Shown here piece after piece: positions 3,954 through 52,040 of a stretch of 64,000 bases of DNA. Location of the stretch: assembly GCA_963828885.1 (NCBI GenBank), contig CAWHGC010000017.1:34522-98521 (forward strand), written 5' to 3'. Position 1 is the first letter of the stretch; each line of letters opens with the position of its first letter. The DNA is from an uncultured Actinomycetes bacterium. Lineage in GTDB: Bacteria; Actinomycetota; UBA4738; HRBIN12. The notes under the pieces are model-generated. The model was not told where the DNA came from, did not search any database, and worked only from the letters and a program-made list of their open reading frames with translations. Made by a program: the position numbers and the translations under genes.

Positions 3954-3972
<19 letters not shown>

Positions 3973-7526: not shown

Positions 7527-7649
7527 CGACGCGCCCCGGTTCCGCTCGATGTGCCGCCCGGCAGGTGGTGCGAACGCCGTCGCTCCCGTCGTCGTCATGA
7601 CCTGCGTGTGATTCGCATCGTCCGGGCCGTCGGATCGTTGCGGCCACGC

Positions 7650-8453: not shown

Positions 8454-8584
8454 GGGTCCTCTCGTCGTCTCGTCGCTCTGGGCGTGCGGATTATGCCACC
8501 CCACGCGGGCGCCACACTTCCGTCACACGAACGCCACCGCCGCATGCTGGTGCCCCCCGGCGGGGCGCCGGTACGCTGGATGTC

Positions 8585-10068
8585 ATGCCGAGTGCGCCGA
8601 ACGAGCCCACCACGTCCGCGCCGAAGGGCCACGGCCGCACCGTCCGGATCTTCCTCGCCATCACCGCGAGCCTGTCGTTGCTCGTGGGTGTCGCCGGCGG
8701 GATCAGCTATCGCGAGCTATAAGGCGGTGGAGGGCGAGGGCGTGAACGACGGAGTTCTACGATCCGGACCCCAGCGCCTCGCCCGGCGCGGATCGACCGA
8801 CCGGACCCTGCGTGAACAACGTCTGCAACTATCTGATCCTCGGCAGTGACTCTCGCCAGGGACTCACGCAAGAAGGAGCAGATCGAGTTCGGCACCAACG
8901 GCGACATCGGAGGCTCGAACCGCTCGGACACGATCATGCTCGTGCACACGCGATCCATCGCAGCAGAAGGCCGCGATCATCTCCTTCCCCCGTGACCTCT
9001 GGGTGAACATCCCGGGCGTCGGTGAGGACAAGATCAACGCCGCGTTCCAGGGAGGCGTCGACGGCGGCGGGCCGGAGCTGGTCGCGAAGACCGTGCACGA
9101 GATCACGGGACTGAGGATCAACCACTACGTCTACGTCGACCTCGCGGGGTTCCAGAACATCGTCGACACGCTCGGCGGCGTCCAGATGTGCATCCCGGCC
9201 GAGAACGTGAACACCCCCGGCTGGGTGCGATGGTCCCGACGGCCCGGTCTTCTACCACCAGCAGGGCTACATCGCCGACCCGTACACCGGGCTGCTCGTG
9301 AAGCCCGGCTGCCAGCTCCTCCACGGAGACCAGGCGCTGGCGTACGTCCGGACCCGGCACCTCAAGTGCGACGCGGTGCCCGACTTCGCCCGCATCAACC
9401 GGCAGCAGGAGTTCCTCCGCGCGGTCATCAACCGGTTGCTGCAGCCATCCGAGCTGATCAAGGCGCCCTCGCTCATCCGGCCGGTGCTCGGAAGCCTCAA
9501 GCGCGACGACAAGCTCACACCCGTCGATCTGGCGTTCCTCGTCAGCCAGCTCCAGGGGATGAGCACCGGCGCGGCGGAGTTCCGATCGGTCCCCGGCACC
9601 GTCGGGACCGAGCAGCCCTCGTGGTCGAGCATCCCGCTGTCGGTCGTGCACATGGATCCGTCGGCCGAGCAGATCTTCGCGGCGCTGCGCGACGGCAAGC
9701 CGCTGCCGAAGGCCGGGACGAGCCTCGAGGGCGTCGAGATGTCGGCGGCCAACATCACCGTGCCGGTCGTCGACCACGACTCCGCCGGCAAGGCGACGGG
9801 CGTCAACACCGTCCTCTCGGACGCCGGCTTCATCGCGCCGGGCATCACGGACTACGCGACCTACGGCGCCGACGTGAAGGGCTCGGTCATCGCGTACGAG
9901 CCCGGGCATGACGCGGAGGCGCAGGTCGTCGCGAAGTACTTCCCCGGCCTCAAGCTCGTGGAGACGCCGAAGGACGCGCTCCCCGGCACCGACGTGGCGG
10001 TCTTCGTGACGGCCGCCTACACCCCGCAGCAGCCCGGGAGCGGGCCCGGCACCACCACCTGCGCGTAG
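8585..10068 (+). CDS. LytR-CpsA-Psr (LCP) family cell-wall glycopolymer ligase, split by about 5 frame changes
   Basis: N-terminal TM segment MPSAPNEP...IFLAITASLSLLVGVAG. LCP core motifs NYLILGSDSRQ, SNRSDTIMLVH, ISFPRDLWVNIPGVGEDKINAAFQGG and LGGV are spread over three frames. The C-terminal LytR_C-like part is intact in ORF 9298..10068. Confidence 0.7.
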
Positions 10069-10088
10069 CGGCCCTGTATCGTGCCCTG

Positions 10089-11150
10089 ATGCGAGCGCTG
10101 GTCCTGTCGGGCGGGGAGGGCTCCCGCCTGCGGCCGATCACCCACACGAACGCCAAGCAGCTGATCCCGGTCGCCGGCACGCCGATCCTGTTCCACGCCC
10201 TCGCGTCGATCAGCGATGCCGGCATCACCGAGGTGGGCCTCGTGGTCGGGCCGCCGAACGAGGACGAGGTCCGCGCCGCCGTCGGCGACGGCTCGCGCTG
10301 GGGGCTCGACCTCGTCTTCATCCATCAGCCGGCGCCGCTGGGCATCGCGCACGCGGTCATGATCGCCGCCGACTTCGTGCGCGGCGCCCCGTTCCTGCTG
10401 TACCTGGGCGACAACGTCCTGCTCGAGGGCGTCGCGCGCTTCGTCGAGGAGTTCGACCGGACGGCGCCCGACGCCCAGATCTTCCTCGCCCGCGTCCCGG
10501 AGCCGGAGCACTTCGGTGTCGCGATCCTCGAGGGGGAGCGGGTCGTTCGGCTGGTCGAGAAGCCGAAGGAGTGGATCTCCGACGTCGCGCTCGTCGGCGT
10601 GTACCTGTTCCGTGATTCGATCCTCGAGGCCTGCGCGACGCTGCAGCCGTCGTGGCGCAACGAGTACGAGATCACCGAGGCGATCCAGTGGCTGATCGAC
10701 AACGGCCGCACGGTCCGCGCCGAGATGGTGAGCGGATGGTGGAAGGACACCGGCAAGCCCGAGGACCTCCTGGAGGCCAACCGCATGATGCTCTCGCTCG
10801 TGCGGCCGCGCGTCGACGGCGAGGTCGACGACGCCTCCACCGTGAACGGCGCCGTCGTCGTCGAGGCCGGCGCGAAGGTGACGAACAGCACCGTCAACGG
10901 CCCGGTCGTGATCGGTCCCGACTGCGTCGTCGACGGTTCCGTCATCGGGCCCGAGGTCTCCCTCGAACGCGGCTGCCGCGTGACGTCGTCGACCGTCACC
11001 GACTCGATCGTGATGGAGGGGTGCTCGATCGACCGCGTGCGCGGGCTCACGGGCTCGATCCTCGGGCGCGGCAGCGACGTGCGGCACTCGGGCGGCGAGG
11101 GAGCGCACCGGCTCATCGTCGGCGACCAGTCCCGGGTCGAGGTCGACTGA
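10089..11150 (+). CDS. rmlA: Glucose-1-phosphate thymidylyltransferase (long form)
   Basis: Intact 353 aa; MRALVLSGGEGSRLRPITHTNAKQLIPVAG is the nucleotidyltransferase signature, followed by a C-terminal beta-helix. Confidence 0.85.
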   Translation: MRALVLSGGEGSRLRPITHTNAKQLIPVAGTPILFHALASISDAGITEVGLVVGPPNEDEVRAAVGDGSRWGLDLVFIHQPAPLGIAHAVMIAADFVRGAPFLLYLGDNVLLEGVARFVEEFDRTAPDAQIFLARVPEPEHFGVAILEGERVVRLVEKPKEWISDVALVGVYLFRDSILEACATLQPSWRNEYEITEAIQWLIDNGRTVRAEMVSGWWKDTGKPEDLLEANRMMLSLVRPRVDGEVDDASTVNGAVVVEAGAKVTNSTVNGPVVIGPDCVVDGSVIGPEVSLERGCRVTSSTVTDSIVMEGCSIDRVRGLTGSILGRGSDVRHSGGEGAHRLIVGDQSRVEVD

Positions 11151-11185
11151 GCGGCAGGGACGAAGTCCGCTAGCCTGAGCCACCC

Positions 11186-12343
11186 ATGAGGGTCGTCGTC
11201 GACGCGAGGCCGGCGCTGGATGCGCGCAAGACGGGGGTGGGGCACTACACCGCCCATCTCCTGCGCGCGCTGCCGGCCGCCGCCCCTGCCGACGAGATCA
11301 CCGCGTGGTACCTGCACGCGAAGGGGCTGCTGCGCCCGCGGACGTTCTTCGGCGACGTGGCCGGGCTGACCGAGAAGGCCTCGAGGTTCCCCGCCCGCGT
11401 GTTCGAGCCGCTGTCGAGCCGGCTCGGCGAGCCGCGCATCGAGCGGTTCGTCGACCTCGACGTGCTGCTGGCCACGAACTTCCTGCCGCCGGCGACCTCG
11501 AGCCCGGGCGTCGTGCTCGTCGTGCACGACCTCGCGTTCCGGAAGTTCCCGGAGACCGCGCCGCACATGGACGCGCGGTGGCTGCGGCGCTTCGAGGACT
11601 GGCTCGCGAGGGCCGCCCGCGTCATCGTGCCGTCGAGGAGCGCGGCGGCCGACCTCACCGACCTCTACGACGTGGACCCGGACCGGATCGACGCGATCCA
11701 CCACGGCGTCGAGGCGCACGCGTTCCGGCCGGCCGCCGAATCCGCCGTCGCCGAGGTCCGCAACCGGTTCGGGATGCCCGGTCCGTACGCGCTGTTCGTC
11801 GGCGGCATCGAGCCCCGGAAGAACCTCGAGCGGCTCGTGCGGGCCTTCGGCCGGCTGCGCGGCCTGAACGACGTGTCGCTCGTCATCGCCGGCGGGCCCG
11901 TCCGATGGTTCCCGCAGGCCTCCGAGCAGCTCGAGGCCGCCGTCGCCGTGCTGCCGGCCGGCGTCCGGTCCCGCGTGATCCGCACCGGCTACGTGAGCCA
12001 GGCCGACAAGGTCGCGCTGATGACCGGCGCGACCCTGATGGCGTACCCCTCGCGCTACGAGGGCTTCGGCTTCCCGGTGATGGAGGCGTTCGCGGCCGGC
12101 CTGCCGGTGCTCACCTCGAACGTCTCGTCGCTGCCCGAGGTCGCCGGCGACGCCGCCGAGCTGGTCGACCCCGACGACACGGAGGCGATCGCGGAGGCGC
12201 TGGAGCGCATGCTCCAGGACCGCGACCTGCTCGACAACCTCGCGGCCGCCGGCGTCGCGCGCGTCTCGGCGTTCACGTGGGAGGCGACGGCGCGCGCGAC
12301 CGTCGCCAGCCTGCACCGGGCCCACGAGACGGCCCGTGGGTAG
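11186..12343 (+). CDS. Glycosyltransferase family 4 (GT-B fold)
   Basis: Intact 385 aa with the GT4 C-terminal motif (EGFGFPVMEAFAAGLPV). Its stop codon TAG is the first three bases of the downstream TAGACT element. Confidence 0.8.
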   Translation: MRVVVDARPALDARKTGVGHYTAHLLRALPAAAPADEITAWYLHAKGLLRPRTFFGDVAGLTEKASRFPARVFEPLSSRLGEPRIERFVDLDVLLATNFLPPATSSPGVVLVVHDLAFRKFPETAPHMDARWLRRFEDWLARAARVIVPSRSAAADLTDLYDVDPDRIDAIHHGVEAHAFRPAAESAVAEVRNRFGMPGPYALFVGGIEPRKNLERLVRAFGRLRGLNDVSLVIAGGPVRWFPQASEQLEAAVAVLPAGVRSRVIRTGYVSQADKVALMTGATLMAYPSRYEGFGFPVMEAFAAGLPVLTSNVSSLPEVAGDAAELVDPDDTEAIAEALERMLQDRDLLDNLAAAGVARVSAFTWEATARATVASLHRAHETARG

Positions 12344-12346
12344 ACT
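12341..12346 (+). promoter_or_regulatory. TAGACT -10-like hexamer 7 nt upstream of the rmlB ATG, giving a candidate leaderless transcript
   Basis: GGTAGACTCGCGCG-ATG. The same GCTAGACTC-type element recurs at 14244 (PLC), 18496 (wzm) and 33498 (GT2-membrane, as TAGTCT). Confidence 0.35.
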
Positions 12347-12352
12347 CGCGCG

Positions 12353-13357
12353 ATGCGGCGGCATGTGCTGGTCACCGGTGGCGCGGGCTTCATCGGGTCC
12401 CACCTCGTGGACGCCCTGCTCGCCGAGCCCGACGCGCGCGTCGTCGTCCTCGACCGCCTGAGCACCGGCGGGAGCCGGGCGAACCTCGAGCAGCACGACG
12501 GCGACGACCGCCTCGAGTTCGTGCTCGGCGACGTCCGGGACGCGGCGACGGTGGAGCCGCTGGTCGCCGCCTCCGACCGCGTGATCCACGCGGCCGCGCA
12601 GTCCCACGTCGACCGCAGCATCGACGACCCGGGGGAGTTCCTCGACACGAACGTCATGGGCACGCGGGTCGTGCTCGACGCCGTCCGCGAGCACGGCACC
12701 CGCATGCTGATGGTGTCGACCGACGAGGTCTACGGGCCCGGCGATCCCGACGGAGGCCTGTTCGACGAGGATCACGCGATGCACCCGCGCAGCCCGTACG
12801 CGGCCAGCAAGGCCGCCGCCGACCTGCTCTGCCAGGCGTACCACGCGACGTACGGCTCGCCGGTGACGGTGGTGCGCGGCACGAACGCGTACGGCCCGCG
12901 GCAGATCGAGCGCGTCGTGCCGACGTACGCGCTGAACGCCCTCGAGGGCCGCCCGGTGCCGGTGTACGGCGACGGCTCGCAGCGGCGCGAGTTCCTGCAC
13001 GTCGAGGACTGGGTGCGCGCGGCGGTCGCGGTGCTGGAGCGCGGCGAGCCCGGCGTGATCTACAACATCGGCGGCGGCACGGAGCTGGCGAACCTCGAGC
13101 TCGCGCGGAGGATCTGCGCGCTGGCCGGCGCCCCGCCCGACCTCGTGACGTTCGTCACCGACCGGCCCGGCCACGACTTCCGCTACGGCGTCGGCGCCGA
13201 CCGCCTGCGCTCGCTCGGATGGGCGCCGGAGATCGGGTTCGACGAGGGGCTCGAGCGCACGGTCGAGTGGTACCGCGACCACCGGGAGTGGATCCGCGCC
13301 GCGCATGACGTGGACGTCGTGACGGCGCCGCGCGAGTCCTCGGAGGCGGGTGCGTGA
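12353..13357 (+). CDS. rmlB: dTDP-glucose 4,6-dehydratase
   Basis: Intact 334 aa with the GGAGFIGS Rossmann motif and the SDR catalytic YxxxK motif (PYAASK). Confidence 0.88.
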
Positions 13358-14202
13358 AGCTGCTCGTCACCGGCGCCGGGGGCGGTCTGGCCCGGGCGTT
13401 CCTCGCGCAGCTGCCGCCGCACCATCGGGTGCACGCCTTCACTCGGGCGGAGCTCGATGTCGGCGACCACGCGGCCGTCATGGTGGCGGTGCCGCTGCTG
13501 GCGCCCGACGCGGTCGTGAACCTCGCCGCCTTCACGAAGGTCGACGCGTGCGAGGCCGATCCGGCGCGCGCGATGCGCGACAACGCGGTGGGCGCGCAGA
13601 ACCTGGCGCTCGCCGCACGCGCCTGTGGCGCCGCTCTGCTGCACGTCTCGACCGACTACGTGTTCGACGGCGCGAAGGGCGCGCCGTACGACGAGACCGA
13701 CCAACCGGCGCCGCTGTCGGTGTACGGGCGCGCGAAGCTCGCCGGCGAGGACCACGTTCGCTCGCTCGTGCACGAGCACATGATCGTGCGCACCGGCTTC
13801 GTGTTCGGGGGCGGCGCCGACTACCTCAGCGGCGCCGTCGACCGGCTGGCGCGCGGCGAGGACGCCGGCGGGCTGCGCGACCGCATCGGCAGCCCCACGT
13901 GGGTGCGCGACCTCGCCGCCCGGCTGCTGCCGATGCTGCTCACCCGCCGGTGGGGGACCTACCACGTCGCCGGCCCCGACCCCGCGTGCTGGTTCGACGT
14001 CCTCACCACCGTCAAGGCGATCGGCTCGCTGCCGGGCGAGGTCCGCGCGCAGACGGCCGCCGAGCTCGGCCTGCCGGCGCCCCGCCCGGTCGATTCCTCG
14101 CTCACGAGCGTGTACGTGCAGCACCTCGGCCTCGCCCCGATGCCGCCGCTCGAGGCCGCCCTCCGAGCCTTCCTCGCCGAACGCCTGGCCGTCTCCGCGT
14201 GA
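13354..14202 (+). CDS. rmlD: dTDP-4-dehydrorhamnose reductase
   Basis: Intact 282 aa RmlD-like SDR. The GTG start overlaps the rmlB stop (GTGA). Confidence 0.8.
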
Positions 14203-14260
14203 GCGGCCACTGCGCCGGACCCGCCCTCGGTTCCGGGTCGGGCTAGACTCCGCGCACTCC

Positions 14261-15608
14261 ATGCGCCGAGCCCTCCTCACCCTGTCGATCGCCGCCCTCG
14301 TCGCGGCCGCGTGCACGGACTCGGGCGCCGGCGGGCCGTCGTCGCCGTCCGTCGTCGGCGAGCCCGTCGGCCTCGCCACCCGCCCGCACCGGCGGCGGTC
14401 CCAAGCCGCAGGCCGTCGACGCCTCCGCCTTCCCGACCCGGTGGCCGATCAAGCACGTCATCTTCCTGATCAAGGAGAACCGAACGTTCGACAACCTCTT
14501 CGGGACGTTCCCCGGAGCGAACGGCGTCAGCACGGGCATGGACCACGGCGTGGAGCGCCCGCTGATCAAGGGCACGGACGGGCGCACGTACGACGACATC
14601 CCGCACTGCTACGAGTGCGCGCTGGCCGCGTGGGACGGCGGTCTGATGGACGGGTTCAACCAGAGCGAGTCCGCGGACCGGTGGGCGTACACCCAGCTGC
14701 ACCACGACCAGCTCCCGAACTACTGGCACTGGGCCAGCCACAACGTGCTGTTCGACAACTTCTTCGCGAGCGCGCAGGGGCCGTCGTTCCCGAACCACCT
14801 GTACGCGATCGCCGCCACGTCGGGCGGCACGCACGACAACCCCCGCCGCAAGCCGAGCCTCACGCACGGCTCGAACACGTTCGGCTGCGACGCGCCGGAC
14901 GAGCAGCTCGTCGAGGTCTACGACAGCGAGGGCAACGTGAAGATGGTGCCGCCCTGCTTCGACTTCGAGACCGAGGGCGACCTGTTGAACGGTGCCAACA
15001 TCCCGTGGTCGTACTACGCCGCCTCCGAACAAGAGAAGGGCTACATCTGGAGCGCGTACTCGGCGATCCGCCGATACCGCCTGCATCCGAAGCGCTGGCA
15101 GGCGCACATCCAGCCGGTCGACCGTGTGGTGAAGGACATCGGGGCCGGCGTCCTGCCGCCGGTCACGTGGATCACGCCCCGCTTCGAGGTCTCCGAGCAC
15201 CCCGAGTACAGCTTCTGCCACGGCGAGAACTTCTCCACGCAGGTGATCGACGCGGTCATGAACAGCGACATGTGGAAGGACACCGCGATCTTCGTGACGT
15301 GGGACGACTACGGCGGGTTCTACGACCACGTCCCGCCGCCGCAGGTGGACGACTTCGGTTTCGGCATCCGCGTGCCGCTGCTCGTGATCAGTCCGTACGC
15401 GGTCGACGGCAAGGTCTCGAGCGAGCTCGGCGAGTTCTCGAGCGTCCTGCGGTTCATCGAGGACAACTGGGGGCTCAACCAGCTCACGAAGCGGGACAAG
15501 GAGGCCACGCCCATGATGTCGGCGTTCAACTTCCACCAGGACCCGCGCCCGCCCGATCCGCTGCCGCTGCGCAAGGACTGCGTGGGCGTGCCGTTCGCGC
15601 AACCCTAG
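14261..15608 (+). CDS. Phosphoesterase family protein (phospholipase C / AcpA-like, PF04185), predicted lipoprotein, split by one frame change near 14395
   Basis: The lipobox signal [18 protein letters not shown] lies in frame A. The conserved core [22 protein letters not shown]... through to the C-terminus lies in ORF 14538..15608. The shift occurs in a cggcggcgg run. Confidence 0.7.
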
Positions 15609-15671
15609 ATCGGGCGTTTCTCCACGGGAACGTCACCGGGCGGCGGGGGAGCGGATGCTACCCTCGGCCTC

Positions 15672-16034
15672 ATGACCAGCGACGATGCACCGGCGGACCA
15701 CCTGGCGCGCGAGCTGTACTGGGCGGAGGAGGCCACACCGCTCGGCCGCATGACGACGGCCGACGTCCGCAACGAGCTGCACGACTTCGCGGCGTTGATG
15801 CGGGCGGACGAGCGGCTGGCGATCCCGCGCGGTGAGGTGAACCTCGCCTCGACGTCCCGGTGGCGCCGCCAGCTCAAGCTCCGGCTGTTCCGCCTGATGC
15901 GGCCGATCAGCTGGCGCTACGACCGGCTGCTCGCCGACGAGGCCGAGCTCACGACGGCGCTCGCCGAGCGGGTGCAGCAGCTCGAGGCCGAGCTCGCCCA
16001 GCTCAAGGCGCGGCTGGAGGACGGGCCGCGGTGA
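15672..16034 (+). CDS. Hypothetical protein with a C-terminal coiled coil
   Basis: A 120-aa ORF with non-repetitive composition. Its stop overlaps the GTG start of the next GT4 gene (GTGA). Confidence 0.4.
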   Translation: MTSDDAPADHLARELYWAEEATPLGRMTTADVRNELHDFAALMRADERLAIPRGEVNLASTSRWRRQLKLRLFRLMRPISWRYDRLLADEAELTTALAERVQQLEAELAQLKARLEDGPR

Positions 16035-17080
16035 GGATCGCGGTCCTGCACCCGCAGACCGCGTTCTCACGCGGCGGAGCCGAGACCCACACCGAGGCGC
16101 TCGTCCGGGCCTTGAAGGTCGCCGGGCACGAGGCCGAGCTCGTCTCGATCGCCGGCAAGTGGTACCCGGCGTGGGAGCTCGCGCACCAGATGGCCGTGTG
16201 GCGCTCCTTCGACATCACCGAGTCCAACGGGCTGAAGGTCGACGCCGTCATCGCGCTGAAGTTCCCGGCGTACCTCGTGCAGCACGAGCGCAAGATCGTC
16301 TGGCTGATCCACCAGCACCGCAGCGCGTACGAGCTGTGGGACCATCCGCGGTTCGCCGACCTGTCGCTGCAGGAGGACGGACCCGCGGTGCGCGACATGG
16401 TCTGGCAGGCCGACCGGGTCGCGCTCGGCGAGGCGAAGCGCATCTTCACGAACTCCCGCAACGTGCAGGACCGGCTCTGGGGCTCGATGCGGCTGTCGAG
16501 CGACGTCCTGTATCACCCATCGCCGCCGACCCTCGCGCTGCTCGGCGAGGAGCCCGGCCCGTACGGCGACTACGTCTTCCTGCCGGGCAGGCTGGAGGCC
16601 CTGAAGCGCCAGCACCTCGTGATCGAGGCGATGCGTCACACGAAGAGCGACGTCCGGCTCGTGCTGGTGGGGTCCGGGCCCGACGAACAGGCCCTGCGTG
16701 ACCAGGTGCGGGCGGCCGGCCTCGGGTCGAAGGTGTCGTTCGAGATCGCCGTCTCCGACGAGCGGCTCCATCAGCTGTACCTGGGCGCGCTCGCCGTCCA
16801 CTACGGGCCGTTCGACGAGGACTACGGGTACGTGACGCTCGAGGGGTTCGCGGCCCATCGCCCCGTCGTGACGACGACCGACGCCGGCGGCCCGCTCGAG
16901 TTCGTCACCGACGGCGAGACGGGCCTCGTGACGCCGCCCGACCCGAAGGCGATCGCGGAGGCGTTCGACCGGCTGTACGCGGACCGGGCGCTGGCGGGGC
17001 GCCTCGGCGCCGCCGGCAACGCCGTCGTGCGCGAGCGCGTGCCGGCCTGGCCCGACGTCGTCGCACGGCTGCTGGACTGA
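16031..17080 (+). CDS. Glycosyltransferase family 4
   Basis: VRIAVLHPQTAFSRGGAETH... GT4 features. The N-terminal 57 aa of the six-frame ORF are Arg-rich overlap and are not taken as coding. Confidence 0.75.
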   Translation: MRIAVLHPQTAFSRGGAETHTEALVRALKVAGHEAELVSIAGKWYPAWELAHQMAVWRSFDITESNGLKVDAVIALKFPAYLVQHERKIVWLIHQHRSAYELWDHPRFADLSLQEDGPAVRDMVWQADRVALGEAKRIFTNSRNVQDRLWGSMRLSSDVLYHPSPPTLALLGEEPGPYGDYVFLPGRLEALKRQHLVIEAMRHTKSDVRLVLVGSGPDEQALRDQVRAAGLGSKVSFEIAVSDERLHQLYLGALAVHYGPFDEDYGYVTLEGFAAHRPVVTTTDAGGPLEFVTDGETGLVTPPDPKAIAEAFDRLYADRALAGRLGAAGNAVVRERVPAWPDVVARLLD

Positions 17081-17085
17081 GCTCG

Positions 17086-18464
17086 ATGGCGGCGCGCGCG
17101 AAGGACCTGGCCCGCCGCGGGGTCGCCGCGCGACGCCGGCGCCGGGCGCAGGAGGCCCAGCGGAACCCGCGCATGGGGTTCTTCGCGCCGCTGCCGCCGG
17201 CGCCGACCGGCGTCGCCACGTACTCGCAGGCGGTGCTGGACGGGCTCCGGCCGGATCGGCTTCTTCGAACGGCACCGCATGGACGTGGAGTGGCCGCCGG
17301 AGCCGCGGCACGAGGGCCTCGTGCCCTGGTACCGGCTCGGCGTCTACTCGCTCGGGAACAACGTGCGCTTCCACCGCGACCTCTACCGCTTCGCGTGCGG
17401 CGCGCCGGGGCTGATCGTGCTGCACGACCTCGCGCTCGACGACTTCGTGCGCGGCATGAAGGTGGAGGGCGACCCGCTCGGGTTCGTCGCCGAGCGCGAG
17501 GCCGAGCGCCTGGCGCCGAACCTCCACTCCGAGGACGTGCTGCGCAACGAGCCGCTGCGCATGCCGTGGGCCGGCCACGTGCTGCGCCGCTCGCGCGGCG
17601 TCATCGTGCACAGCGACTTCGGCCGGCGCTACGTCGAGGAGCTCGGCTCGCGGACGCCGGTGTTCGTCGTGCCGCATCCGGTCGTCGAGTCCGACGCCGA
17701 CATGGAGCGCGCGCGGCGGCACGCGCCGGCGCTGCGGGCACCGCTCGAGGCCCGCGGCGCCCGCACGGTGATCGTCGCGCCCGGCGACCTGAACGAGGCG
17801 AAGCAGCTCGGCGCGCTCCTCGCCGCCGCACGGCTCCTGCCCGAGGACGTGCACGTGGTGATGGTCGGCCGGCGCATCGAGGGCTACGACGCCGACCGCG
17901 AGGTCGCGGCGAGCGGCCTGGGCGGGCGGGTGACGCTCGCGCCGGACGTGAGCGACGACGACTTCCGCGGGTGGCTGTGCGCGGCCGACGTCGCCGTCGA
18001 CCTTCGGTTCCCGCACCGCGGCGAGGTGAGCGGCTCGCTCGCGCGCGCGATGCAGGCCGGGCTGCCGGCCGTCGTCAGCGCCACCGGCACCTACCTCGAC
18101 GTGCCGGACGAGCTGGTGCTGCGGGTGGCGCCGGGTCCGACCGACCCGAGCGAGCTGGCGGCGCAGCTGCGGCTGCTGATCGACGACGAGGGCCTCCGCG
18201 TCCGGATGGGCGCGGCCGCGCGCGACCACGTCGAGGAGCGTGCGCGCCTCGGAGGCCACCGCGCACGGGTACGAGCGGGCGATCGTGGAGACCCTCCGCC
18301 TGGTCCGAGATCCCGTCCGGAAGGCCGAGGCCCGCTGGTCCGGCGCCCTCGCCGACATCGGCGTCGGCGAGCCCGAGGTCCGCGCCGGCTACGGCGTCGG
18401 GTACGCGCGGGCGCTCGAGAGCTTCCGGGGCGGAGCACCCGCGGGGCCGCCCGAATCGCCATAG
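17086..18464 (+). CDS. Glycosyltransferase family 4, split by two frame changes
   Basis: The N-terminus MGFFAPLPPAPTGVATYSQAVLDGL and most of the body lie in ORF 17279..18517. The C-terminal 70 aa lie in ORF 18240..18464. Confidence 0.6.
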
Positions 18465-18603
18465 GAGCTTCACCGGCCGGGCCTGAGCCCGTTGCTAGAC
18501 TCGGCCGAGCGCGCTGACCAGCGCGTTTCCGATCCCGGCAGCAGGGAGCATCGCCATCGCCACGACCGTCGTCACGCGCACGTCGGAGGAGCCGAAGCTC
18601 CGC

Positions 18604-19440
18604 ATGCTCCGGCGCATCCGCGAGCTCGCCGCCCACCGCGAGATCCTGCTGAACCTGGTCCGCAAGGAGCTGAAGGTCAAGTACACGGCCTCGGTGCTGG
18701 GCGCGGTCTGGTCGCTGCTGAACCCGGTCGTCTTCCTCGCCGTGTTCTCGTTCGTCGTCGTCGTCACCGGCAACGCGCTGCCGCACTATCCGGTGTATCT
18801 GCTGTCGGGGCTGCTCGCATGGAACCTGTTCAGCAACTCGCTGCTGCAGGGAGCGCGGTCGGTCGTCGACAACGCGAGCCTCGTGAAGAAGGTCTACTTC
18901 CCCAGGGAGATCCTGCCGCTCGCCTCGATCGGCGTGACCTTGGTGGACTTCGTCCTGCAGTCGGCCGTGCTGCTGTTGTTCATGCTCGTGACCGGCTACG
19001 GCTTCCATCTCCACGTGCTGTGGATGTACCCGCTCGCCGTCGCCACGCTGCTGGTGTTCACGCTCGCCGTGACGCTCTGGGTGGCGGGCCTGAACGTGCG
19101 CTACCGGGATGTGCAGCACCTGCTGAACCTCGGTCTGCTCGTCTGGTTCTGGATGACGCCCATCGTGTACCCGGGCGCCCTGGTCCAGGAGTATCTGACC
19201 GGCAAGGCCGATGTCCTCTGGAACCTCTTCCTGTTGAACCCGCTCGCCACCATCGTGTTCGGCTTCCAGCGGGCGCTGTACGGCGTGGTCAGCCCCAACG
19301 GTGAGGACGTCCTGCCGCAGGTCTCGCTGCGGTGGATGGGCGGCATGCTGCTGCTCGTGCTGACCTGCTCGCTGCTGCTGCTCTCGTACACGTGGCGCCT
19401 CTACTTCCGCCTCTCCGGCGACTTCGCGGAGGAGCTGTGA
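18604..19440 (+). CDS. wzm: ABC-2 type polysaccharide export permease (Wzm/TagG-like)
   Basis: Intact 278 aa, six TM segments, ABC-2 family N-terminus RKELKVKYTASVLGAVWSLLNP. Confidence 0.85.
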   Translation: MLRRIRELAAHREILLNLVRKELKVKYTASVLGAVWSLLNPVVFLAVFSFVVVVTGNALPHYPVYLLSGLLAWNLFSNSLLQGARSVVDNASLVKKVYFPREILPLASIGVTLVDFVLQSAVLLLFMLVTGYGFHLHVLWMYPLAVATLLVFTLAVTLWVAGLNVRYRDVQHLLNLGLLVWFWMTPIVYPGALVQEYLTGKADVLWNLFLLNPLATIVFGFQRALYGVVSPNGEDVLPQVSLRWMGGMLLLVLTCSLLLLSYTWRLYFRLSGDFAEEL

Positions 19441-20599
19441 CGGCCGCCATCGAGATCGAGCACGTCTCCAAGGTCTTCCGCCTGTTCCGCGAGAAGCCCT
19501 CCTCGCTGAAGGCCCGCCTCATCAGCTCGCGCTCGCGCGCGGAGGACTTCTGGGCGCTGCGCGACATCAGCTTCGAGATCCGCGAGGGGGAGTCGCTCGG
19601 CCTGATCGGCCACAACGGCAGCGGCAAGACCACGCTGCTGAAGGTGATCGCCGGCATCATCCGCCCGACCGAGGGGGTCGTTCGCAGCCGCGGCCGCCTG
19701 GCGCCCCTGCTCGAGCTCGGCGCCGGCTTCCACCCGGAGCTGACCGGCCGCGAGAACGTCTACCTCAACGCGTCGTTCCTCGGGCTCACACGCAGGGACA
19801 CCGACCGCGTGTACGAGGACATCGTGGAGTTCGCCGAGATCCCCGACTTCATGGACAACCAGGTGAAGTTCTACAGCTCGGGCATGCTCGTGCGGCTCGG
19901 GTTCGCGGTCGCCGTGCACGTGGATCCCGAGATCCTCCTGGTCGACGAGGTCCTCGCCGTCGGCGACGAGGCCTTCCAGGCCAAGTGCCTGAGCCGGATC
20001 CGCGGCTTCCAGCGCGAGGGCCGCACGATCGTGCTCGTCACGCACGCCCTCGACGTCGTGTCGCAGGTCTGCGACCGGGCCGTGATGCTCGACCACGGCG
20101 AGCTGTACGCGAAGGGCAACCCGACCGACGTCGTGCGCGAGCTCCGGTACGCCCTGCTGAGCAACGACCCCAACTTCGTCGCCGAGGAGGGCACGCGCGA
20201 GGTCGAGCTCGCCGGCGTCGAGCCTGATCCGCGAGGACGGCACCACCGAGCGGCCGGTGCGGCTGGGCGAGGACCTCACGATCCAGATCGACGCCCGCGC
20301 GAACCAGACCGTCGACGACCTCGTGGCGAGCTTCCAGGTCCTGGACTCGGCGAACCTATCCCGTCGTGGACGGCCGGGAGCCGATCGGCCACATCGAGGG
20401 CAAGAAGCGCATCCGCTTCATCCTCCGGCGCCTGTCGCTCGTGCCCGGCCGCTACTTCGTGACGGTCGGCCTCGAGGCCGGCGAGTCCGGCCGCCTGCTG
20501 CACGTGCAGACGCAGCGATACTGGTTCGAGGTCGTCGACGAGGAGCGCCCGCACCACGAGGGGGAGATCCGCGTCGACGCCGCAACGGAGGACCTGTGA
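19437..20599 (+). CDS. wzt: Polysaccharide ABC transporter ATP-binding protein (Wzt-like) with a C-terminal carbohydrate-binding domain, split by two frame changes
   Basis: Walker A GHNGSGKT, signature YSSGMLVRLG and Walker B LLVDEVLAVGD are present. The C-terminal domain (...YWFEVVDEERPHHEGEIRVDAATEDL) lies in ORF 20366..20599, with the linker in a third frame. The GTG start overlaps the wzm stop. Confidence 0.75.
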
Positions 20600-20658
20600 A
20601 CGCGAACCCCCCCGTCACCGACCCCGAAGCCCATCATCCGAAGGAAGGATCCCGCGTC

Positions 20659-21030
20659 ATGCTGATCGGTCTCATCCTGATGTCGGTCGCGCTGGCGGCC
20701 ACCGCGCAGCTCACGCTGAAGCACGGCATGAACCAGGTCACCGAGGCGAGCGGGACGGCCACCCTGTCCGGCAGCTCCCTGCGGGCGGTCCTCACGAACC
20801 TCTCGGTGCTGTGCGGCCTCGCGATCTTCGGGCTGTCGGCGGTGGTCTGGCTCCTCGTGCTGTCGCGGGCGTCGCTCTCGTTCGCGTATCCGTTCGCCTC
20901 GCTCACGTACGTGCTGATCCTGCTGGCCGACCGGTTCGTGCTGCACGAGGAGATCCCGTTCCTGCGGTGGGTCGGCGTGGCCTTCATCGTGACCGGCATC
21001 ATCCTCGTCGCGCAGACCCCGCACCGGTGA
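20659..21030 (+). CDS. Small EamA/DMT-like 4-TM membrane protein (ArnE/ArnF-like glycolipid flippase-type subunit)
   Basis: MLIGLILMSVALAATAQLTLKHG... 124 aa with 4 TM segments and an AAGGAAGGA Shine-Dalgarno sequence. Confidence 0.6.
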   Translation: MLIGLILMSVALAATAQLTLKHGMNQVTEASGTATLSGSSLRAVLTNLSVLCGLAIFGLSAVVWLLVLSRASLSFAYPFASLTYVLILLADRFVLHEEIPFLRWVGVAFIVTGIILVAQTPHR

Positions 21031-21069
21031 GCCGGCCGAGAGCCGGCGGAGGCGGCCGACCTCGCCGTC

Positions 21070-21900
21070 GTGATCGTCAACTACAACACGGGCCACTACC
21101 TCGAGCGGTGCCTGGCGTCGCTGGCCGCGCGCCGGGGCGACGCTCGCGACCGACGTGCTCGTGATCGACAACGCGTCCCACGACGGCTCGCACACCGCCG
21201 CCGTCGCCGCACATCCCGAGGTCCGGCTGATCGAGAACCGGACGAACGTGTACCTGTCGCCGGCGTGGAACCAGGGCGCGCGCGCGACGAGCGCCCCGTA
21301 CCTGCTGTTCCTGAACCCCGACGCCGAGCTGTTCGCCGGCACGCTCGCCGACTACGTCGGCGTGGCGGCCGCGCACCCGGCCGCCGGCATCGTCGGGCCG
21401 ATGATCCGCAACCTCGACGGCACCGTGTACGCGAGCGGCCGGCGGTTCCCGAGCGTCGTCGACGCGACCTTCCACGCGATGCTGTCGCCGTTCACGCGCG
21501 ACAACCCGTTCACCCGCCGCTACGAGATGGAGGGCTGGGACCGGACGACCGAGCGCGAGGTCGACTGGGTGTCCGGCGCCGCCATGCTGATGCCGCGCGA
21601 GGCCTTCGACGCCGTCGGCGGGTTCGACGAGGCGTTCCCGCTGTACGCCGAGGAGCTCGACATCGCGACGCGCCTGCACCAGACCGGTCGCACCGTCCTG
21701 TTCACGCCCGAGGTCGAGTTCCTGCACGCGATCGGCGTGTCGACCGGCCGGTCGCGGAAGATCCTGCTGATGCACTCGCGCAGCGTGTACCGCTACTACG
21801 CGAAGCACCGCGCCGGGGGCTGGCGGCGCCTGACGCTGCCGCTCGCGAGGGTCGCGCTCCGGCTGCGCGCCGAGGTCGCCTGGCTCCGGGGGTCGCAGAT
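21070..21900 (+). CDS. Glycosyltransferase family 2 (WbbL-like rhamnosyltransferase candidate), split by a frame change near 21140
   Basis: GT2 signature (I)VNYNTGHYLERCLASL followed by VLVIDNASHDGS ... DAELFAGTL ... VDWVSGAAMLMPREAF. The position matches Mtb wbbL next to rmlD and manC. The true stop is probably the TGA overlapping the manC ATG. Confidence 0.65.
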
Positions 21901-22918
21901 GAAGGCCGTCGTCCTGGTCGGCGGCGAGGGCACCCGCCTGCGGCCGCTCACGCTCACCACGCCGAAGCCGCTGATCCCCGTGATGGACCGGCGGTTCCTG
22001 GACCTCGTGCTCGACCTGCTGGCGCGCCACGGCGTGCAGGAGGTCGTGCTGTCCTCGCCCTACCTCGAGGAGACGTTCCGGTCGTTCGTCGACGTCGCGC
22101 CGCGACCACCTCCCCGCCGATCCGGTGGATCACCGAGACCGAGCCCCTCGGCACCGGCGGCGCCGTCGTGAACGCCCTCGACCACCTCGGACGACGACGA
22201 CCTCGTGTTCGCGCTGAACGGCGACATCCTCACCGACCTCGACCTGACCGCGATGCTCGAGTTCCACCGGCAGCGCGGCGCCTCCGTCACGATCTCGCTC
22301 ACCCACGTCGAGGACGCCCGGCCCTTCGGCCTCGTCCTCACCGAGGCCGACGGCCGCGTGCGCGAGTTCCTGGAGAAGCCCGCCGACCCGATCCCCGGCG
22401 ACGTGAACGCCGGCACGTACCTGATCGACCCGGCGGTGCTGCACGGCTTCGCGCGCGGGGAGGCGTTGTCGATCGAACGCCAGATCTTCCCGGCGGTGAT
22501 CGCCGACGGCCGGCCCGTGTACGGGTTCGTCTCCGACGCCTACTGGATGGACCTCGGCACGCCGGAGAAGTACCTCCAGGGACACTTCGACATCTTCGAG
22601 GGGCGGGTGCGCGACCTCGAGTACCCGGCGCCGTGGGTGCACCGGGCCGCCGACGTCCACCTGCGCGCGCACCTCGGGCGGTGGGTGGCGGTCGGCGCCG
22701 GCGCGGTGGTCGGGGAGGACGCGACGGTCGAGGACTCGGTCGTGCACCCGGGCGGCCGGATCGGGGCGGGGGCCCGGGTCGTGAGCTCGATCGTCGGTGC
22801 GAACGCACTGGTCGGAGCCGGTGCGACGGTCGTCGACTGCGTCCTCGGGGAGGGCGCGGAGGTCGCGGCGGGTGCGCTCATCGAGGGCGATCGGGTCGCC
22901 GGACCGTCCGCACGCTGA
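21898..22918 (+). CDS. NDP-sugar pyrophosphorylase (mannose-1-phosphate guanylyltransferase-like), split by two frame changes near 22100-22200
   Basis: MKAVVLVGGEGTRLRPLTLTTPKPLIPV, then EPLGTGGAVVNALDHL in a second frame, then the rest including a beta-helix C-terminus in ORF 22205..22918. Confidence 0.7.
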
Positions 22919-22988
22919 GTCCCGGGCGGCCCGGAACGATGTGGTACGGTGCCGGGCCCGGGGCCTCCCGGCCCCTCCCCATCACCTG

Positions 22989-24704
22989 ATGCGAAGAGCC
23001 GCACTCCTCGTCGCCGTCTCCCTCGTCGCTTCCCTGGGCGTCCTCCCGGCCGCGCCGGCCGGTGCCGCCGGGTCGTTCACCTTCTACGGCTCCGGCTTCG
23101 GGCACGGTCTCGGGATGTCGCAATGGGGGGCCTACGGCCTCGCGAAGGACGGCTGGGCGCACAAGAAGATCCTCACCCACTTCTACTCGGGCACCGTCGT
23201 GAAGCAGGCCTCCTCGCCGCCCAAGAACCTCCGGATCGGGCTCACGCAGGGACAGTCGAAGGTGCATCTCACCGCCGAGGCAGGACCCGTCACGATCCGC
23301 GTCGAGGATCCGAAGACCGGCACGGAGGTCGGCACGATCCCGAAGGGGAAGACCTGGACCGTGCGCGAGGCCGGCGACGAAGTACCGCGTGCTGAACTCG
23401 GCGGGCAAGCGCGTCGGCGGCAAGGACTGGGGCGGCACGGCACGGGACCTGTTCGTCACGTACGCCGGCGCCCGGGTGCGCTCGGCCGCTGCCGGCGCCA
23501 CCTACAACCGTGGCTTCATCGAGTTCAACCTGTACTCGTGCGCCGGGAGCTGCGCGATGCGCATGATCCTGGTGGTCGCGCCCGAGGCCTACCTCCTCGG
23601 GCTCGGGGAGGTGCCGAGCAGCTGGCCGATGGCCGCGCTCCGCGCGCAGGCGGTGGCGGGCGCGGTCCTACGCCCTCAACAAGGTGGAGTCCGGGCAGCA
23701 CCGCGCCGGCTGCAACTGCGGCCTGTACGACTCGTCGCTGGACCAGGTCTACATCGGGTGGGCGAAGGAGGGCGGCTCCCAGGGCGACCGCTGGGTGCAC
23801 GCGGTGCACCAGACCGGCGGCCAGATCGTCGCGTTCTCCGGCGACGTGATCCCGGCCTTCTACACCTCCTCCGACGGCGGCCACACGGAGAACAACGAGA
23901 ACGTCTGGGGCGGAACGCCGCTGCCGTATCTCAGGGGCGTCTGCGATCCCGGCGACTACACCTCGGCGAACCCGAGCGCCGTGTGGAAGGTCTCGTACTC
24001 GGCGGGGTCGGTGACGAACCGCCTCGCCGGCTACACCGGCAACATCGGCACCGTGTCGGGGTTCACCGACTTCGACCGCGGCGTGTCCGGGCGCATCATC
24101 ACGGTCCGCGTGGAGGGGAAGAACGGCTCGGACGTGATCAGCGGCGCGCAGTTCCGCGCGGGCCTCGGGCTCAAGGACGACCGCGTGTGGGTGAATCGCG
24201 ACAAGAACGTGACGGGGCGGATCCGCGCGACCTACGACGCCGCCTCGTGCGCGCCCGGCCTGCCCACCTCGCCCGAGGTCGACGTGCCGGGCGGCAGCCG
24301 CCAGCTCTTCGAGACCGGCGCGATCTACCGAAACACGGGCGACGTGACCGTGTGGCTGAAGGGCGCCGTCTTCGACGAGTACACGGCGGTGGGCGGCGCC
24401 GGCGGCCGACTCGGCCTGCCCACGTCGAAGGTGGTGCACGGTCACGGGCGTCACCGGATGCGCGGCGGGGTGCAGCCGGACCTCGTTCGTGCGCGGACGG
24501 ATCTACTGGAAGTCGGGCGTCGGCGCCAACGCCCTGTGGGGCCGCGTGCTGGACACGTTCCTCGCCCACAACGGCGTCGACGGGTCGCTGGGGTTCCCGA
24601 CCTCGCGCGTGCAGGTGGCGGACGACGGCAGCGCGTCGGCCACCTTCGAGCACGGCTCGATCGAGTGCCCGCCGCCCGACGGCGGGGACTGCACGATCAG
24701 CTGA
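22989..24704 (+). CDS. SpoIID/LytB-domain protein with C-terminal LGFP repeats, split by about 3 frame changes
   Basis: A signal peptide is followed by SFTFYGSGFGHGLGMSQWGAYGLA (SpoIID). A large central part lies in ORFs 23389.. and 23684... LGFP repeats (GGRLGLPTSKVV, GSLGFPTSRVQ) are at the end. Confidence 0.65.
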
Positions 24705-33429: not shown

Positions 33430-33535
33430 CCCTCGCCGTTTCCGATCGTGAAGGGGGGCGTCATGCCCCCCTTCCGTCGTTCTTCAGGAGGTGCGTGCTA
33501 GTCTCCGCGCCGCGCGGCTGACCCGTGCATCCCTC

Positions 33536-49333: not shown

Positions 49334-52040
<2,707 letters not shown>

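Follow-up and report, generated by a model that had tools for sequence, protein, structure and literature searches.

Within the window, as we call the whole 64,000-nucleotide stretch of DNA analyzed here, positions 8585-24704 hold 15 tightly coupled genes on a single (+) strand, from the ATG of an LCP gene at 8585 to the stop codon of a SpoIID-LGFP gene at 24702-24704. Gene identities were backed by Pfam and NCBIfam profile matches to the window genes and their intact orthologues, with Pfam as the basis for the Wzm, Wzt, GT4, GT2, PF04185, SpoIID and LGFP assignments. The genes are as follows (scores and cut-offs in bits).

8585-10068, + strand, LCP (LytR-CpsA-Psr) glycopolymer-to-peptidoglycan ligase; PF03816 and PF13399, both on the C-terminal piece; five single-base insertions
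10089-11150, + strand, RmlA, long-form glucose-1-phosphate thymidylyltransferase; TIGR01208 (rmlA_long) 442.3, cut-off 320; PF00483; intact
11186-12343, + strand, GT4a glycosyltransferase; PF00534, PF13692, PF13439; intact
12353-13357, + strand, RmlB, dTDP-glucose 4,6-dehydratase-like; TIGR01181 359.5, 6 bits under the cut-off of 365.1; intact
13354-14202, + strand, RmlD, dTDP-4-dehydrorhamnose reductase; TIGR01214 231.4, cut-off 224.05; GTGA overlap with RmlB; intact
14261-15608, + strand, PLC/AcpA-family lipoprotein phosphoesterase; PF04185, 188; one insertion near 14348
15672-16034, + strand, 120-aa all-helical protein; no Pfam family; directly upstream of GT4b and translationally coupled to it
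16031-17080, + strand, GT4b glycosyltransferase; PF00534, PF13692; intact
17086-18464, + strand, GT4c glycosyltransferase; fragments in three frames, two insertions, stop at 18462-18464
18523-19440, + strand, Wzm ABC-2 permease; PF01061 (ABC2_membrane) 51.4
19437-20599, + strand, Wzt ATPase, with a nucleotide-binding domain (PF00005, ABC_tran) and a C-terminal carbohydrate-binding domain (about 20170-20599)
20596-21030, + strand, ArnE/ArnF-like small membrane protein with 4 TM helices; GTGA overlaps at both ends; intact
21027-21902, + strand, GT2, positional orthologue of the WbbL rhamnosyltransferase; PF00535; at least one insertion, at 21142, and more indels at both ends
21899-22918, + strand, ManC-type mannose-1-phosphate guanylyltransferase; PF00483 and LbH
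22939-24704, + strand, SpoIID/LytB-domain protein with LGFP repeats (LGFP matched in the window); three to four frame breaks

The gene content and boundaries in a preliminary description of this DNA agree with the profile matches and the located start and stop codons. The GTGA overlaps that it listed at 13354, 16031 and 19437 are present in the sequence, as are two more at 20596 and 21027, and 4-nt overlaps chain Wzt, ArnE/F, WbbL and ManC. All of the listed genes are there, but the description overlooked frame breaks in seven of the 15 window genes, namely LCP, the phosphoesterase, GT4c, Wzt, WbbL, ManC and SpoIID-LGFP.

Frame breaks were counted by aligning the window genes, with frameshifts allowed, to their intact orthologues in a related locus, L070, which is identical in gene content and flanks. 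About 18 skips were needed, 16 of them over single extra bases, and no skip corresponded to a missing base. With the extra bases skipped, every broken gene aligned over its full length at 76-90% identity. The LCP fragments, spread over three frames, matched the orthologue at 381 of 488 residues (skips at 8711, 8754, 8869, 8951 and 9228); GT4c matched at 374 of 451 (skips at 17251 and 18239); and Wzt, which reads frames 0, 1 and 2 in turn, matched at 346 of 386 after frame repair. ManC runs into a stop codon at 22169-22171 as the result of a two-base and a one-base event, and its alignment needed skips at 22106, 22189 and 22904. The WbbL-like gene carries an extra base at about 21142 that is absent from contig L082, and its first in-frame stop does not come before 22169. 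SpoIID-LGFP required skips at 22987, 23379, 23659 and 24437.

The interruption of 7 genes out of 15 could mean that the locus is truly decaying, with the frameshifts as real mutations and the pathway dead, but the nature and distribution of the events make this very improbable. Nearly every one is a single-base insertion, and none is a single-base deletion relative to the L070 orthologues, a pattern qualified by a DNA alignment to contig L087 in which the window shows two one-base gaps at the ArnE/F-WbbL junction. Coding signal and amino acid identity remain high across the breaks. Short frame switches occur all along the window, and the essential SecA gene and the phosphomannomutase gene elsewhere in it are likewise split across frames. 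Contigs L074 and L087 (96% identical) and L082 (91.5%) are without precisely those bases that are in excess near 20221, 20357 and 21141. Because independent contigs of 96% identity do not have them, we read the extra bases as assembly errors. Similar fragmentation was seen in 16 of 30 loci from "MFD" MAGs and in no other locus examined, so that it is confined to one MAG assembly series. These observations make a strong, though indirect, case that the frame breaks are assembly errors and not gene decay, and the genes were therefore treated as intact.

The LCP protein carries a TM helix at its N terminus and a LytR_C tail, and its orthologue scores 119.7 bits on TIGR00350 (cut-off, 62.3). A search of the window for rmlC gave no match, though as a search it was weak, and no priming GlcNAc-1-P transferase came to light there. 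Together with the ArnE/F-like protein, Wzm and Wzt, the WbbL-like and ManC proteins score under the NCBIfam equivalog cut-offs; the best NCBIfam match of the ManC orthologue was man1P_GTase_Rv (299 bits; cut-off, 440). The WbbL-like protein shares 37% identity over 267 aa with what we take to be the Mtb WbbL1 sequence, which serves as a lead only. The sequences do not reveal which donor sugars the GT4 enzymes use; GT4b is 92.6% identical to its L070 orthologue, and the PDB relatives of the GT4 enzymes (for GT4a, MshA, GlgM and PimA) are all distant. The phosphoesterase, with a lipobox at 14261 (18 residues) and PDB matches to the PLC 8yk5 and to AcpA (2d1g), is part of a cassette that varies among relatives, with zero to two copies in each. 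The orthologue of the ArnE/F-like protein scored 60 bits on the NCBIfam ArnF model and 50 bits on ArnE, both under cut-off, with a weak EamA match, making it a candidate polyprenyl-phosphate-sugar flippase. The SpoIID-LGFP protein, whose orthologues show both SpoIID and LGFP domains, is predicted to be a wall-associated peptidoglycan-remodelling protein.

The open frame of Wzm has its first start codon at 18604, and its alignment to L070 Wzm begins at 18529; on the galactan Wzm model of NCBIfam the protein scores under cut-off. In Wzt, both insertions (at about 20220 and 20356) fall inside the C-terminal domain, which is thus readable only after repair; the open reading frame at 19437-20462 is out of frame beyond about 20220. 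Pfam Wzt_C (PF14524) scored 36.9 bits in the intact orthologue (cut-off, 30.4) and is precomputed in nearly all of 120 listed Wzt homologues. An AF2 model of the repaired window domain is a beta-sandwich with pLDDT above 90, and its best 17 Foldseek matches in the PDB belong without exception to carbohydrate-binding domains of Wzt proteins, among them 8dky/6o14 (TM 0.73-0.75), 5hno/5hnp and the E. coli O9a domain 2r5o (rmsd 2.3). The carbohydrate-binding-module fold proposed earlier for this extension is thus present. The best match in both sequence and fold is WzmWzt of Aquifex aeolicus (7k2t, 8dku; binding domain, 6o14, 8dky); a phmmer comparison with full-length A. aeolicus Wzt gave an E value of 3.5e-72 over residues 6-363, binding domain included, although the binding domains are only 22-24% identical. 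The Trp in the lid of the A. aeolicus cap pocket aligns with the W of QTQRYWF in the window protein (PMC9445017), a position that other subclades fill with L, M, P, S or G.

Wzt binding domains accompany capped polymers (PMC9445017); in A. aeolicus, the O antigen that is transported is a D-rhamnan/mannan with a 3-O-methyl cap. Despite the Wzt binding domain, no capping enzyme (methyltransferase, kinase or Kdo transferase) was found among the genes of the window locus. The 120-aa protein encoded upstream of GT4b, for which a Pfam search gave no match, has 420 homologues, every one from MAGs or metagenomes, and its AF2 model consists of three helices, the last spanning residues 63-117. Its longer relatives carry a C-terminal SAM methyltransferase. 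In L072, L073 and 20 related loci, a coiled-coil methyltransferase of this kind immediately precedes GT4b or the small protein. The 120-aa protein is homologous to the N-terminal, noncatalytic module of these enzymes. The methyltransferase at this site in about one third of related loci resembles the WbdD terminator logic; the order of coiled coil and then methyltransferase suggests an analogue of WbdD, with no claim of homology to it. To call the polymer of this genome chain-length-capped was therefore an overstatement, with the enzyme at the expected site only in 20 relatives.

The full order LCP-RmlA-GT4a-RmlB-RmlD-[cassette]-small-GT4b-GT4c-Wzm-Wzt-ArnEF-WbbL-ManC-SpoIID recurs in 31 loci, representing at least 31 related species-level MAGs, and about 25 more hold partial copies. 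The flanks are an ordinary sahH-pmm-fbiAB neighbourhood that also holds the DUF3499 gene. The locus is thus typical of its lineage, and not the unusual insertion that it had been taken for.

We consider it likely that the products of this locus, whose frame breaks are assembly errors, form an ABC-transporter-dependent route to a wall-linked polysaccharide. RmlA, RmlB and RmlD, together with an RmlC whose gene lies elsewhere, would supply dTDP-L-rhamnose, and ManC with the phosphomannomutase at 39998-41561 would supply GDP-mannose, so that the polymer may contain rhamnose and mannose. A GlcNAc-1-P transferase encoded elsewhere would prime polyprenyl phosphate, and the WbbL-like GT2 would then add rhamnose, giving a mycobacterial-type linker. 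Within the cytoplasm, the three GT4 enzymes would lengthen the chain, whose nonreducing end, possibly capped, would be recognized by the fused carbohydrate-binding domain of Wzt, and Wzm/Wzt would export the lipid-linked polymer. The LCP enzyme would move it onto peptidoglycan, and outside the membrane the ArnE/F-like protein, the phosphoesterase and SpoIID-LGFP may serve decoration, trimming or wall remodelling.

The LCP/RmlD/WbbL/ManC core could instead serve a major wall polymer other than the GT4/Wzm/Wzt product. These four would then be housekeeping linker genes, with the polymerases elsewhere (for example, the 1044-aa GT2 at 33491-36625), and the GT4, small-protein and Wzm/Wzt genes would be responsible for a separate surface glycan. 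In Mtb, this core of four genes serves arabinogalactan, with polymerases and exporter elsewhere (PMC4981717, PMC13018209), and the large GT2 lies about 9 kb downstream of our locus with DUF5719 and an L,D-transpeptidase. Moreover, a subclade of seven loci keeps small-GT4b-GT4c-Wzm-Wzt-ArnEF-ManC-SpoIID without RmlA/B/D and WbbL at the site and with LCP inverted. However, all genes are co-directional in the 31 loci, and the 4-nt overlaps join Wzt, ArnE/F, WbbL and ManC, which argues for co-expression and a single pathway; we therefore regard two separate pathways as unlikely.

It is rather improbable that the exported glycan ends up elsewhere than on peptidoglycan, whether protein linked, as an S-layer-type O-glycan like that of Geobacillus stearothermophilus, or lipid anchored, as a lipoglycan. 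The best Gram-positive precedent for a capped Wzm/Wzt substrate is indeed a 2-O-methyl-capped S-layer glycoprotein rhamnan with rml genes in its cluster (PMC2943079), but Pfam found no O-oligosaccharyltransferase or O-antigen-ligase-like gene among the 15 genes, and in nearly all relatives the locus opens with an LCP ligase gene. Teichoic acid export, raised at the outset as the case that would contradict a glycan locus, is hardly credible here. On TagH models the Wzt nucleotide-binding domain does reach 179-197 bits, and it aligns well with TarH/TagH structures, which would fit a polyol-phosphate system with a TagG/TagH-like exporter, but these scores are far under the cut-offs of 320 and 538. 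Profile searches detected no teichoic acid polymerase, CDP-glycerol/ribitol transferase or cytidylyltransferase in the locus, and the solved TarGH transporters are without a Wzt_C domain (PMC13018209). Together with the Wzt_C fold, this supports the original reading of an ABC-transporter-dependent glycan locus around LCP-rmlD-wbbL-manC.

The proposed wall-polysaccharide pathway combines features of several systems. E. coli O8/O9a polymannose depends on ManC/ManB, the GT4 mannosyltransferases WbdA/B/C, the terminator WbdD, and Wzm/Wzt with a C-terminal carbohydrate-binding domain (see also PMC9445017, PMC2943079). The window locus likewise has ManC, a nearby phosphomannomutase, three GT4 enzymes and a Wzt domain that superposes on 2r5o, and the 20 relatives have the coiled-coil methyltransferase adjoining the GT4 genes. 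In contrast to E. coli, the host is of Gram-positive type with LCP in place of WaaL, rhamnose genes and a WbbL-like GT2 lie within the locus, and the coiled-coil protein of this genome lacks a catalytic domain. Streptococcal rhamnose polysaccharides are exported by an ABC transporter and ligated by LCP enzymes, and we know of no Wzt binding domain or cap in that system. Its first rhamnosyltransferase is GacB, whereas a WbbL-type GT2 is found here. Those peptidoglycan-anchored polymers (Lancefield group A carbohydrate) start from lipid-linked GlcNAc, which receives a first rhamnose (PMC6802508), as may the polymer of the window. In Mtb, the lcp1-rmlD-wbbL1 synteny and ManB share the neighbourhood of fbiA/B, pmm, the DUF3499 gene and sahH (PMC4981717). 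Mtb galactan also leaves as a lipid-linked polymer through a Wzm/Wzt-type pump (Rv3781/Rv3783), as is predicted from the genes here, but the Mtb exporter and polymerases are encoded at other sites and the Mtb Wzt is without a carbohydrate-binding domain (PMC13018209), whereas here RmlA, RmlB, three GT4 enzymes, the exporter and accessory genes lie between LCP and WbbL. The slg locus of G. stearothermophilus NRS 2004/3a is a Gram-positive ABC-transporter-dependent pathway with rml genes, overlapping wzm/wzt and a methyl-capped chain end proposed to be read by Wzt (PMC2943079). Unlike the window locus, it uses WsaB to put the glycan on protein, employs rhamnosyltransferases of other families, and has its capping methyltransferase as a domain of WsaE.

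Judged from the gene order in these MAGs, the locus is common to an uncultured soil lineage of Actinomycetota. The new point is that a so far unannotated protein of 120 aa is tied by homology to coiled-coil methyltransferases.

Genes in the locus were called from third-position GC content (the window has a GC content of 72%) and then checked against Pfam and NCBIfam. This analysis gave 15 genes between 8585 and 24704, all on the + strand.

Genes of the locus, with coordinates, strand and supporting profile match.
8585-10068 (+), LCP protein (Pfam/NCBIfam)
10089-11150 (+), long-form RmlA (TIGR01208, 442 bits, cut-off 320)
11186-12343 (+), GT4a glycosyltransferase (Pfam)
12353-13357 (+), RmlB (TIGR01181, 359.5, just under the cut-off of 365.1)
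13354-14202 (+), RmlD (231.4 bits, cut-off 224)
14261-15608 (+), PF04185 phosphoesterase with a lipoprotein signal (Pfam)
15672-16034 (+), small protein of 120 amino acids without a Pfam family
16031-17080 (+), GT4b glycosyltransferase
17086-18464 (+), GT4c glycosyltransferase
to 19440 (+), Wzm ABC-2 permease (PF01061, 51.4 bits, cut-off 26.9)
19437-20599 (+), Wzt ATPase (PF00005, 76.7 bits)
20596-21030 (+), ArnE/F-like protein with four transmembrane segments
21027-21902 (+), WbbL-like GT2 (PF00535, 61.5 bits)
21899-22918 (+), ManC
to 24704 (+), SpoIID-LGFP protein

Every gene named in the preliminary description was present in Pfam and NCBIfam comparisons, its boundaries for the locus were right, and the GTGA overlaps that it cited proved real, with two more found at 20596 and 21027; the overlap at 19437 joins Wzm to Wzt. 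The window fragment of LCP scored 39.9 bits against PF03816, the orthologue from the intact locus L014 scored 123 bits, and that from L070, the closest intact locus (NCBI MAG GCA_038322385.1), scored 119.7 against TIGR00350 (cut-off 62.3). The WbbL-like GT2 reached 29.5 with the NCBIfam rhamnosyltransferase subfamily model (cut-off 200), no relative of it was found in the PDB, and it was 37% identical to what we take to be the sequence of Mycobacterium tuberculosis WbbL1. For the three GT4 enzymes, only distant retaining GT4 relatives were found among solved structures, and the donor sugars therefore could not be read from their sequences. A weak search of the window and of the flanks of related loci, with a query that we take to represent RmlC, did not detect this enzyme.

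Seven of the 15 genes are broken in the window, namely, those for LCP, the phosphoesterase, GT4c, Wzt, WbbL, ManC and SpoIID-LGFP. When intact orthologues were used as tblastn queries, the parts of the broken genes fell in two or three frames, and frameshift-aware alignment to the proteins of L070 restored each to full length at 76-90% identity. This alignment required about 18 skips, 16 of which passed over single extra bases and none of which compensated for a missing base. Short frame switches occur throughout the whole window at about one per 1-1.5 kb, as at 1-1051, 3962-5906, 51410-52922 and the two DUF3105 genes at 24748-26393. SecA (49334-51957) is split, with SecA_SW profile positions 1-75 and 106-200 in different frames, and domains I, II-III and IV of a phosphomannomutase (39998-41561) lie in three frames. 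A metagenome pattern scan yielded independent contigs at 96% (L074 and L087) and 91.5% (L082) nucleotide identity, and their gaps relative to the window within Wzt and WbbL corresponded only to the predicted extra bases, at approximately 20221, 20357 and 21141. At the ArnE/F-WbbL junction (21027-21060), comparison with L087 revealed two further small indels. At the other end of WbbL (21890-21902), the stop codon in the ATGA at 21899 does not match the reading frame and WbbL runs on into ManC until 22169, so that its 3' end must hold one additional error or more. Three contigs at 99% identity (L067-L069) span only 14.8-17.1 kb, a stretch free of frame breaks. Among the related loci, multifragment genes were found in 16 of the 30 from the "MFD" MAG series and in none of the others.

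Given the pattern of extra bases, the restriction to the MFD series and the clean contigs at 96% identity, we conclude from sequence comparison that the breaks are apparent assembly errors and that the locus genes should be read as intact. That the locus has truly decayed is very improbable: the skipped events are insertions only, the contigs at 96% identity lack the extra bases, the housekeeping genes for SecA and phosphomannomutase are likewise split, and the multifragment genes are confined to one MAG series. Two apparent features of the window were also rejected. The open reading frame at 19437-20462 is not the true Wzt, as its final approximately 80 codons are out of frame, and an N-terminal extension of WbbL in frame 3 (20814-21029) was identified by GC3 analysis as an off-frame echo of the ArnE/F gene, over-long open reading frames being usual in a high-GC genome. 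The window carries about one spurious single-base insertion in every kilobase, and gene integrity, fusions and "extra domains" in it should therefore be compared with intact relatives before they are trusted.

The Wzt C terminus illustrates the effect of these breaks. The open reading frame at 19437-20462 is out of frame from approximately 20220, and Pfam consequently detected only its ATPase domain and no Wzt_C. The carbohydrate-binding domain is present in the window and becomes readable after removal of two extra bases. Intact Wzt orthologues are 386-390 amino acids long and carry Wzt_C (PF14524; 36.9 bits against a cut-off of 30.4 in L014), which was also found in L070 and in nearly all of the 120 homologues listed in precomputed results. 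In a phmmer search of the PDB, residues 6-363 of L070 Wzt aligned to full-length Aquifex aeolicus Wzt, binding domain included. An AF2 model built from the three reading-frame pieces of the window stitched together, plus 18 homologues, had a mean pLDDT of 82, with values of >90 across a beta-sandwich (jelly-roll). The Foldseek matches ranked 1-17 in the PDB were all Wzt carbohydrate-binding domains, including those of A. aeolicus (8dky and 6o14; TM 0.73-0.75), the Kdo-cap-binding O12 domain (5hno/5hnp) and that of E. coli O9a (2r5o; rmsd 2.3). The orthologue matches, together with the modeled structure and its resemblance to O9a, therefore bear out the earlier proposal that the Wzt C terminus carries a genuine extra domain, with a predicted carbohydrate-binding fold.

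Within this domain, the window encodes the motif HVQTQRYWFE at about 20530-20560. At the position that aligns with Trp362, the cap-lid residue of A. aeolicus Wzt, the window and loci L002, L056, L058 and L070 have W; the other related loci have L, M, P, S, G, A, R or V there. Across the loci sampled, a methyltransferase was found only with Q/T-type motifs and never with motifs ending in E/D, a pattern that shared ancestry could explain. Wzt binding domains are known to go together with caps (PMC9445017, PMC2943079).

One genome per species was scanned with GT4b as the query. All 61 related loci recovered came from uncultured Actinomycetota/Actinomycetes MAGs. The full order from LCP to SpoIID was found in 31 loci, most of the others end at contig edges, and in a variant of seven loci RmlA, RmlB, RmlD and WbbL are absent at the site. 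L070 has the same 15 genes as the window and the same flanks, with genes for aconitase, RskA, an ECF sigma factor and RR-GGDEF upstream and two DUF3105 genes downstream. The retention of this order across relatives indicates that the locus is a stable property of the lineage rather than an insertion confined to a single genome. Its surroundings are an ordinary actinobacterial neighborhood of fbiB/fbiA/fbiC, a DUF3499 gene, pmm, a SIS protein gene and sahH, with CofD, F420 ligase, PGM/PMM domains, the SIS protein and AdoHcyase identified downstream. The M. tuberculosis genes lcp1, rmlD and wbbL1 are direct neighbors, and the Lcp1-RmlD-WbbL1-ManB block to which they belong (PMC4981717) shares the neighborhood of the window (fbiA/B, pmm and sahH); the position of the WbbL-like GT2 next to ManC matches as well. 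The preliminary description, although largely right in its interpretation, thus overstated how unusual the locus is.

Divergent from LCP, the minus strand at 6259-8504 encodes an RR-GGDEF protein, an ECF sigma factor and an RskA-type anti-sigma factor. L070 and L071 share this divergent arrangement, and the related locus L073 has an ECF/RskA pair close by; the arrangement may point to envelope stress control of the locus. A second cell envelope module is encoded at 33491-39189 (+), comprising a 1,044-amino-acid GT2 with weak similarity to GlfT1, MftF and rhamnosyltransferases, a DUF5719 protein (36550-37998) and a YkuD L,D-transpeptidase with PG_binding_4 (38038-39189). Elsewhere in the window are a raiA RNA motif at 46131-46359 (+) (Rfam RF03072; 151 bits, gathering score 101), with a LuxR-type response regulator downstream (46822-47514), and a tmRNA gene at 62246-62596 (+) with the tag peptide ADNYALAA. 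The 5' end of the open reading frame at 62408-63367 (FMN_red match) overlaps the tmRNA gene, which makes its start doubtful.

Taken together, the system is one of ABC-transporter-dependent glycan assembly with a binding-domain Wzt, set in an actinobacterial LCP/WbbL context. Apart from the presence and predicted fold of the binding domain and the family membership of LCP, we infer the steps of its mechanism, the most likely course being as follows. RmlA, RmlB and RmlD, together with an RmlC encoded elsewhere, would supply dTDP-L-rhamnose, and ManC with the nearby PMM would supply GDP-mannose. The WbbL-like GT2 would place rhamnose on polyprenyl-PP-GlcNAc, the latter produced by an enzyme encoded elsewhere, and GT4a, GT4b and GT4c would lengthen the chain. 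The binding domain of Wzt would then read the chain end and Wzm/Wzt would export the polymer, which the LCP protein, judged by its family, may ligate to peptidoglycan. The ArnE/F-like protein, the lipoprotein phosphoesterase and SpoIID-LGFP would work outside the membrane. A 729-amino-acid membrane protein encoded at 55980-58169 (-) gives a marginal YfhO match (28.6 against 28.5 bits). Proteins of the YfhO family, which are glycosyltransferases of the GT-C type, use polyprenyl-phosphate sugars to decorate wall polymers; the membrane protein could thus act together with the ArnE/F-like flippase, though it is encoded 35 kb away.

Other assignments of the polymer were considered. The core genes and the GT4/exporter module might serve two different polymers, which we consider unlikely, or the glycan might pass to protein or lipid instead of peptidoglycan, for which we see only a small chance. 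Teichoic acid export, the alternative for the GT4 and transporter genes raised at the outset, has an almost negligible probability, since Pfam found no TagB/TagF-type polyol-phosphate polymerase among the locus genes and the NCBIfam TagH models scored far below their cut-offs (197 against 538 and 179 against 320).

The one part of the locus that merits follow-up is a coiled-coil module together with a variable cassette. The 420 homologues of the small protein are all unnamed and come without exception from metagenomes or MAGs; only 112 representatives appear among 1.84 billion clusters. Its AF2 model predicts three helices, the last spanning residues 63-117, and Pfam and AF2 indicate that 15672-16034 encodes this helical module alone, without a catalytic domain. 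In nine of the ten longer relatives tested (297-403 amino acids; P0287 to P0347), the module is N-terminal to a class I SAM methyltransferase. In L073 (2831-3880), such a coiled-coil methyltransferase immediately precedes GT4b- and GT4c-like genes, with an LCP gene nearby, and in L072 (1244-2299) one immediately precedes a stand-alone small protein. The sole variable part of the locus is the cassette that separates RmlD from the small protein, which holds zero to two phosphoesterases, a GNAT protein and, in 20 loci, a methyltransferase. In these 20 loci (L013, L015, L016, L018, L021, L027, L030-L036, L038, L039, L041, L043, L047, L054 and L057), the methyltransferase gene immediately precedes the small protein or GT4b, at locus coordinates of about 8900-9550. 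A methyltransferase domain was detected neither in the window by tblastn nor among the locus genes by Pfam, and the window, L070, L001 and L002 combine the scaffold-like module and the binding domain without a methyltransferase. The description of the polymer as "chain-length-capped" therefore went too far for this window, though the putative capping enzyme is present in those 20 relatives.

The functional layout resembles that of WbdD, the E. coli O8/O9a chain terminator, in that a coiled coil and a methyltransferase stand beside GT4 polymerases, ManC and a binding-domain Wzt. The domain order differs, however, and comparison of the relatives' methyltransferase with WbdD structures gave no detectable sequence relation, the best PDB matches being 3dli and TcaB9-type sugar C-methyltransferases; the resemblance is one of analogy only. 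We tentatively propose, as a possibility rather than a probability, that this uncultured actinobacterial lineage uses O8/O9a logic to control how long a peptidoglycan-linked wall polysaccharide becomes and how it is exported. The coiled-coil protein beside the polymerizing GT4 enzymes would act as a ruler or terminator scaffold, a swappable cassette of coiled-coil methyltransferase, GNAT protein and phosphoesterases would provide the chain-end chemistry, and the Wzt binding-domain pocket would vary in step with the cassette. If so, the clade of the window, which keeps the scaffold and the binding domain but lacks the capping enzyme, would imply either a novel mode of recognizing the chain end or a ruler that acts alone.

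Work on the cap-dependent mechanism has so far concerned the O antigens of Gram-negative bacteria, apart from a proposal that it also applies to one S-layer glycan. If the model presented here is true, cap-dependent export through the Wzt domain would extend to a wall polymer of Actinomycetota built on the mycobacterial linker/LCP scaffold, and this compact and conserved set of genes, which is unbroken in L070 and L014, could be expressed to reveal the wall glycans of abundant uncultured soil bacteria.
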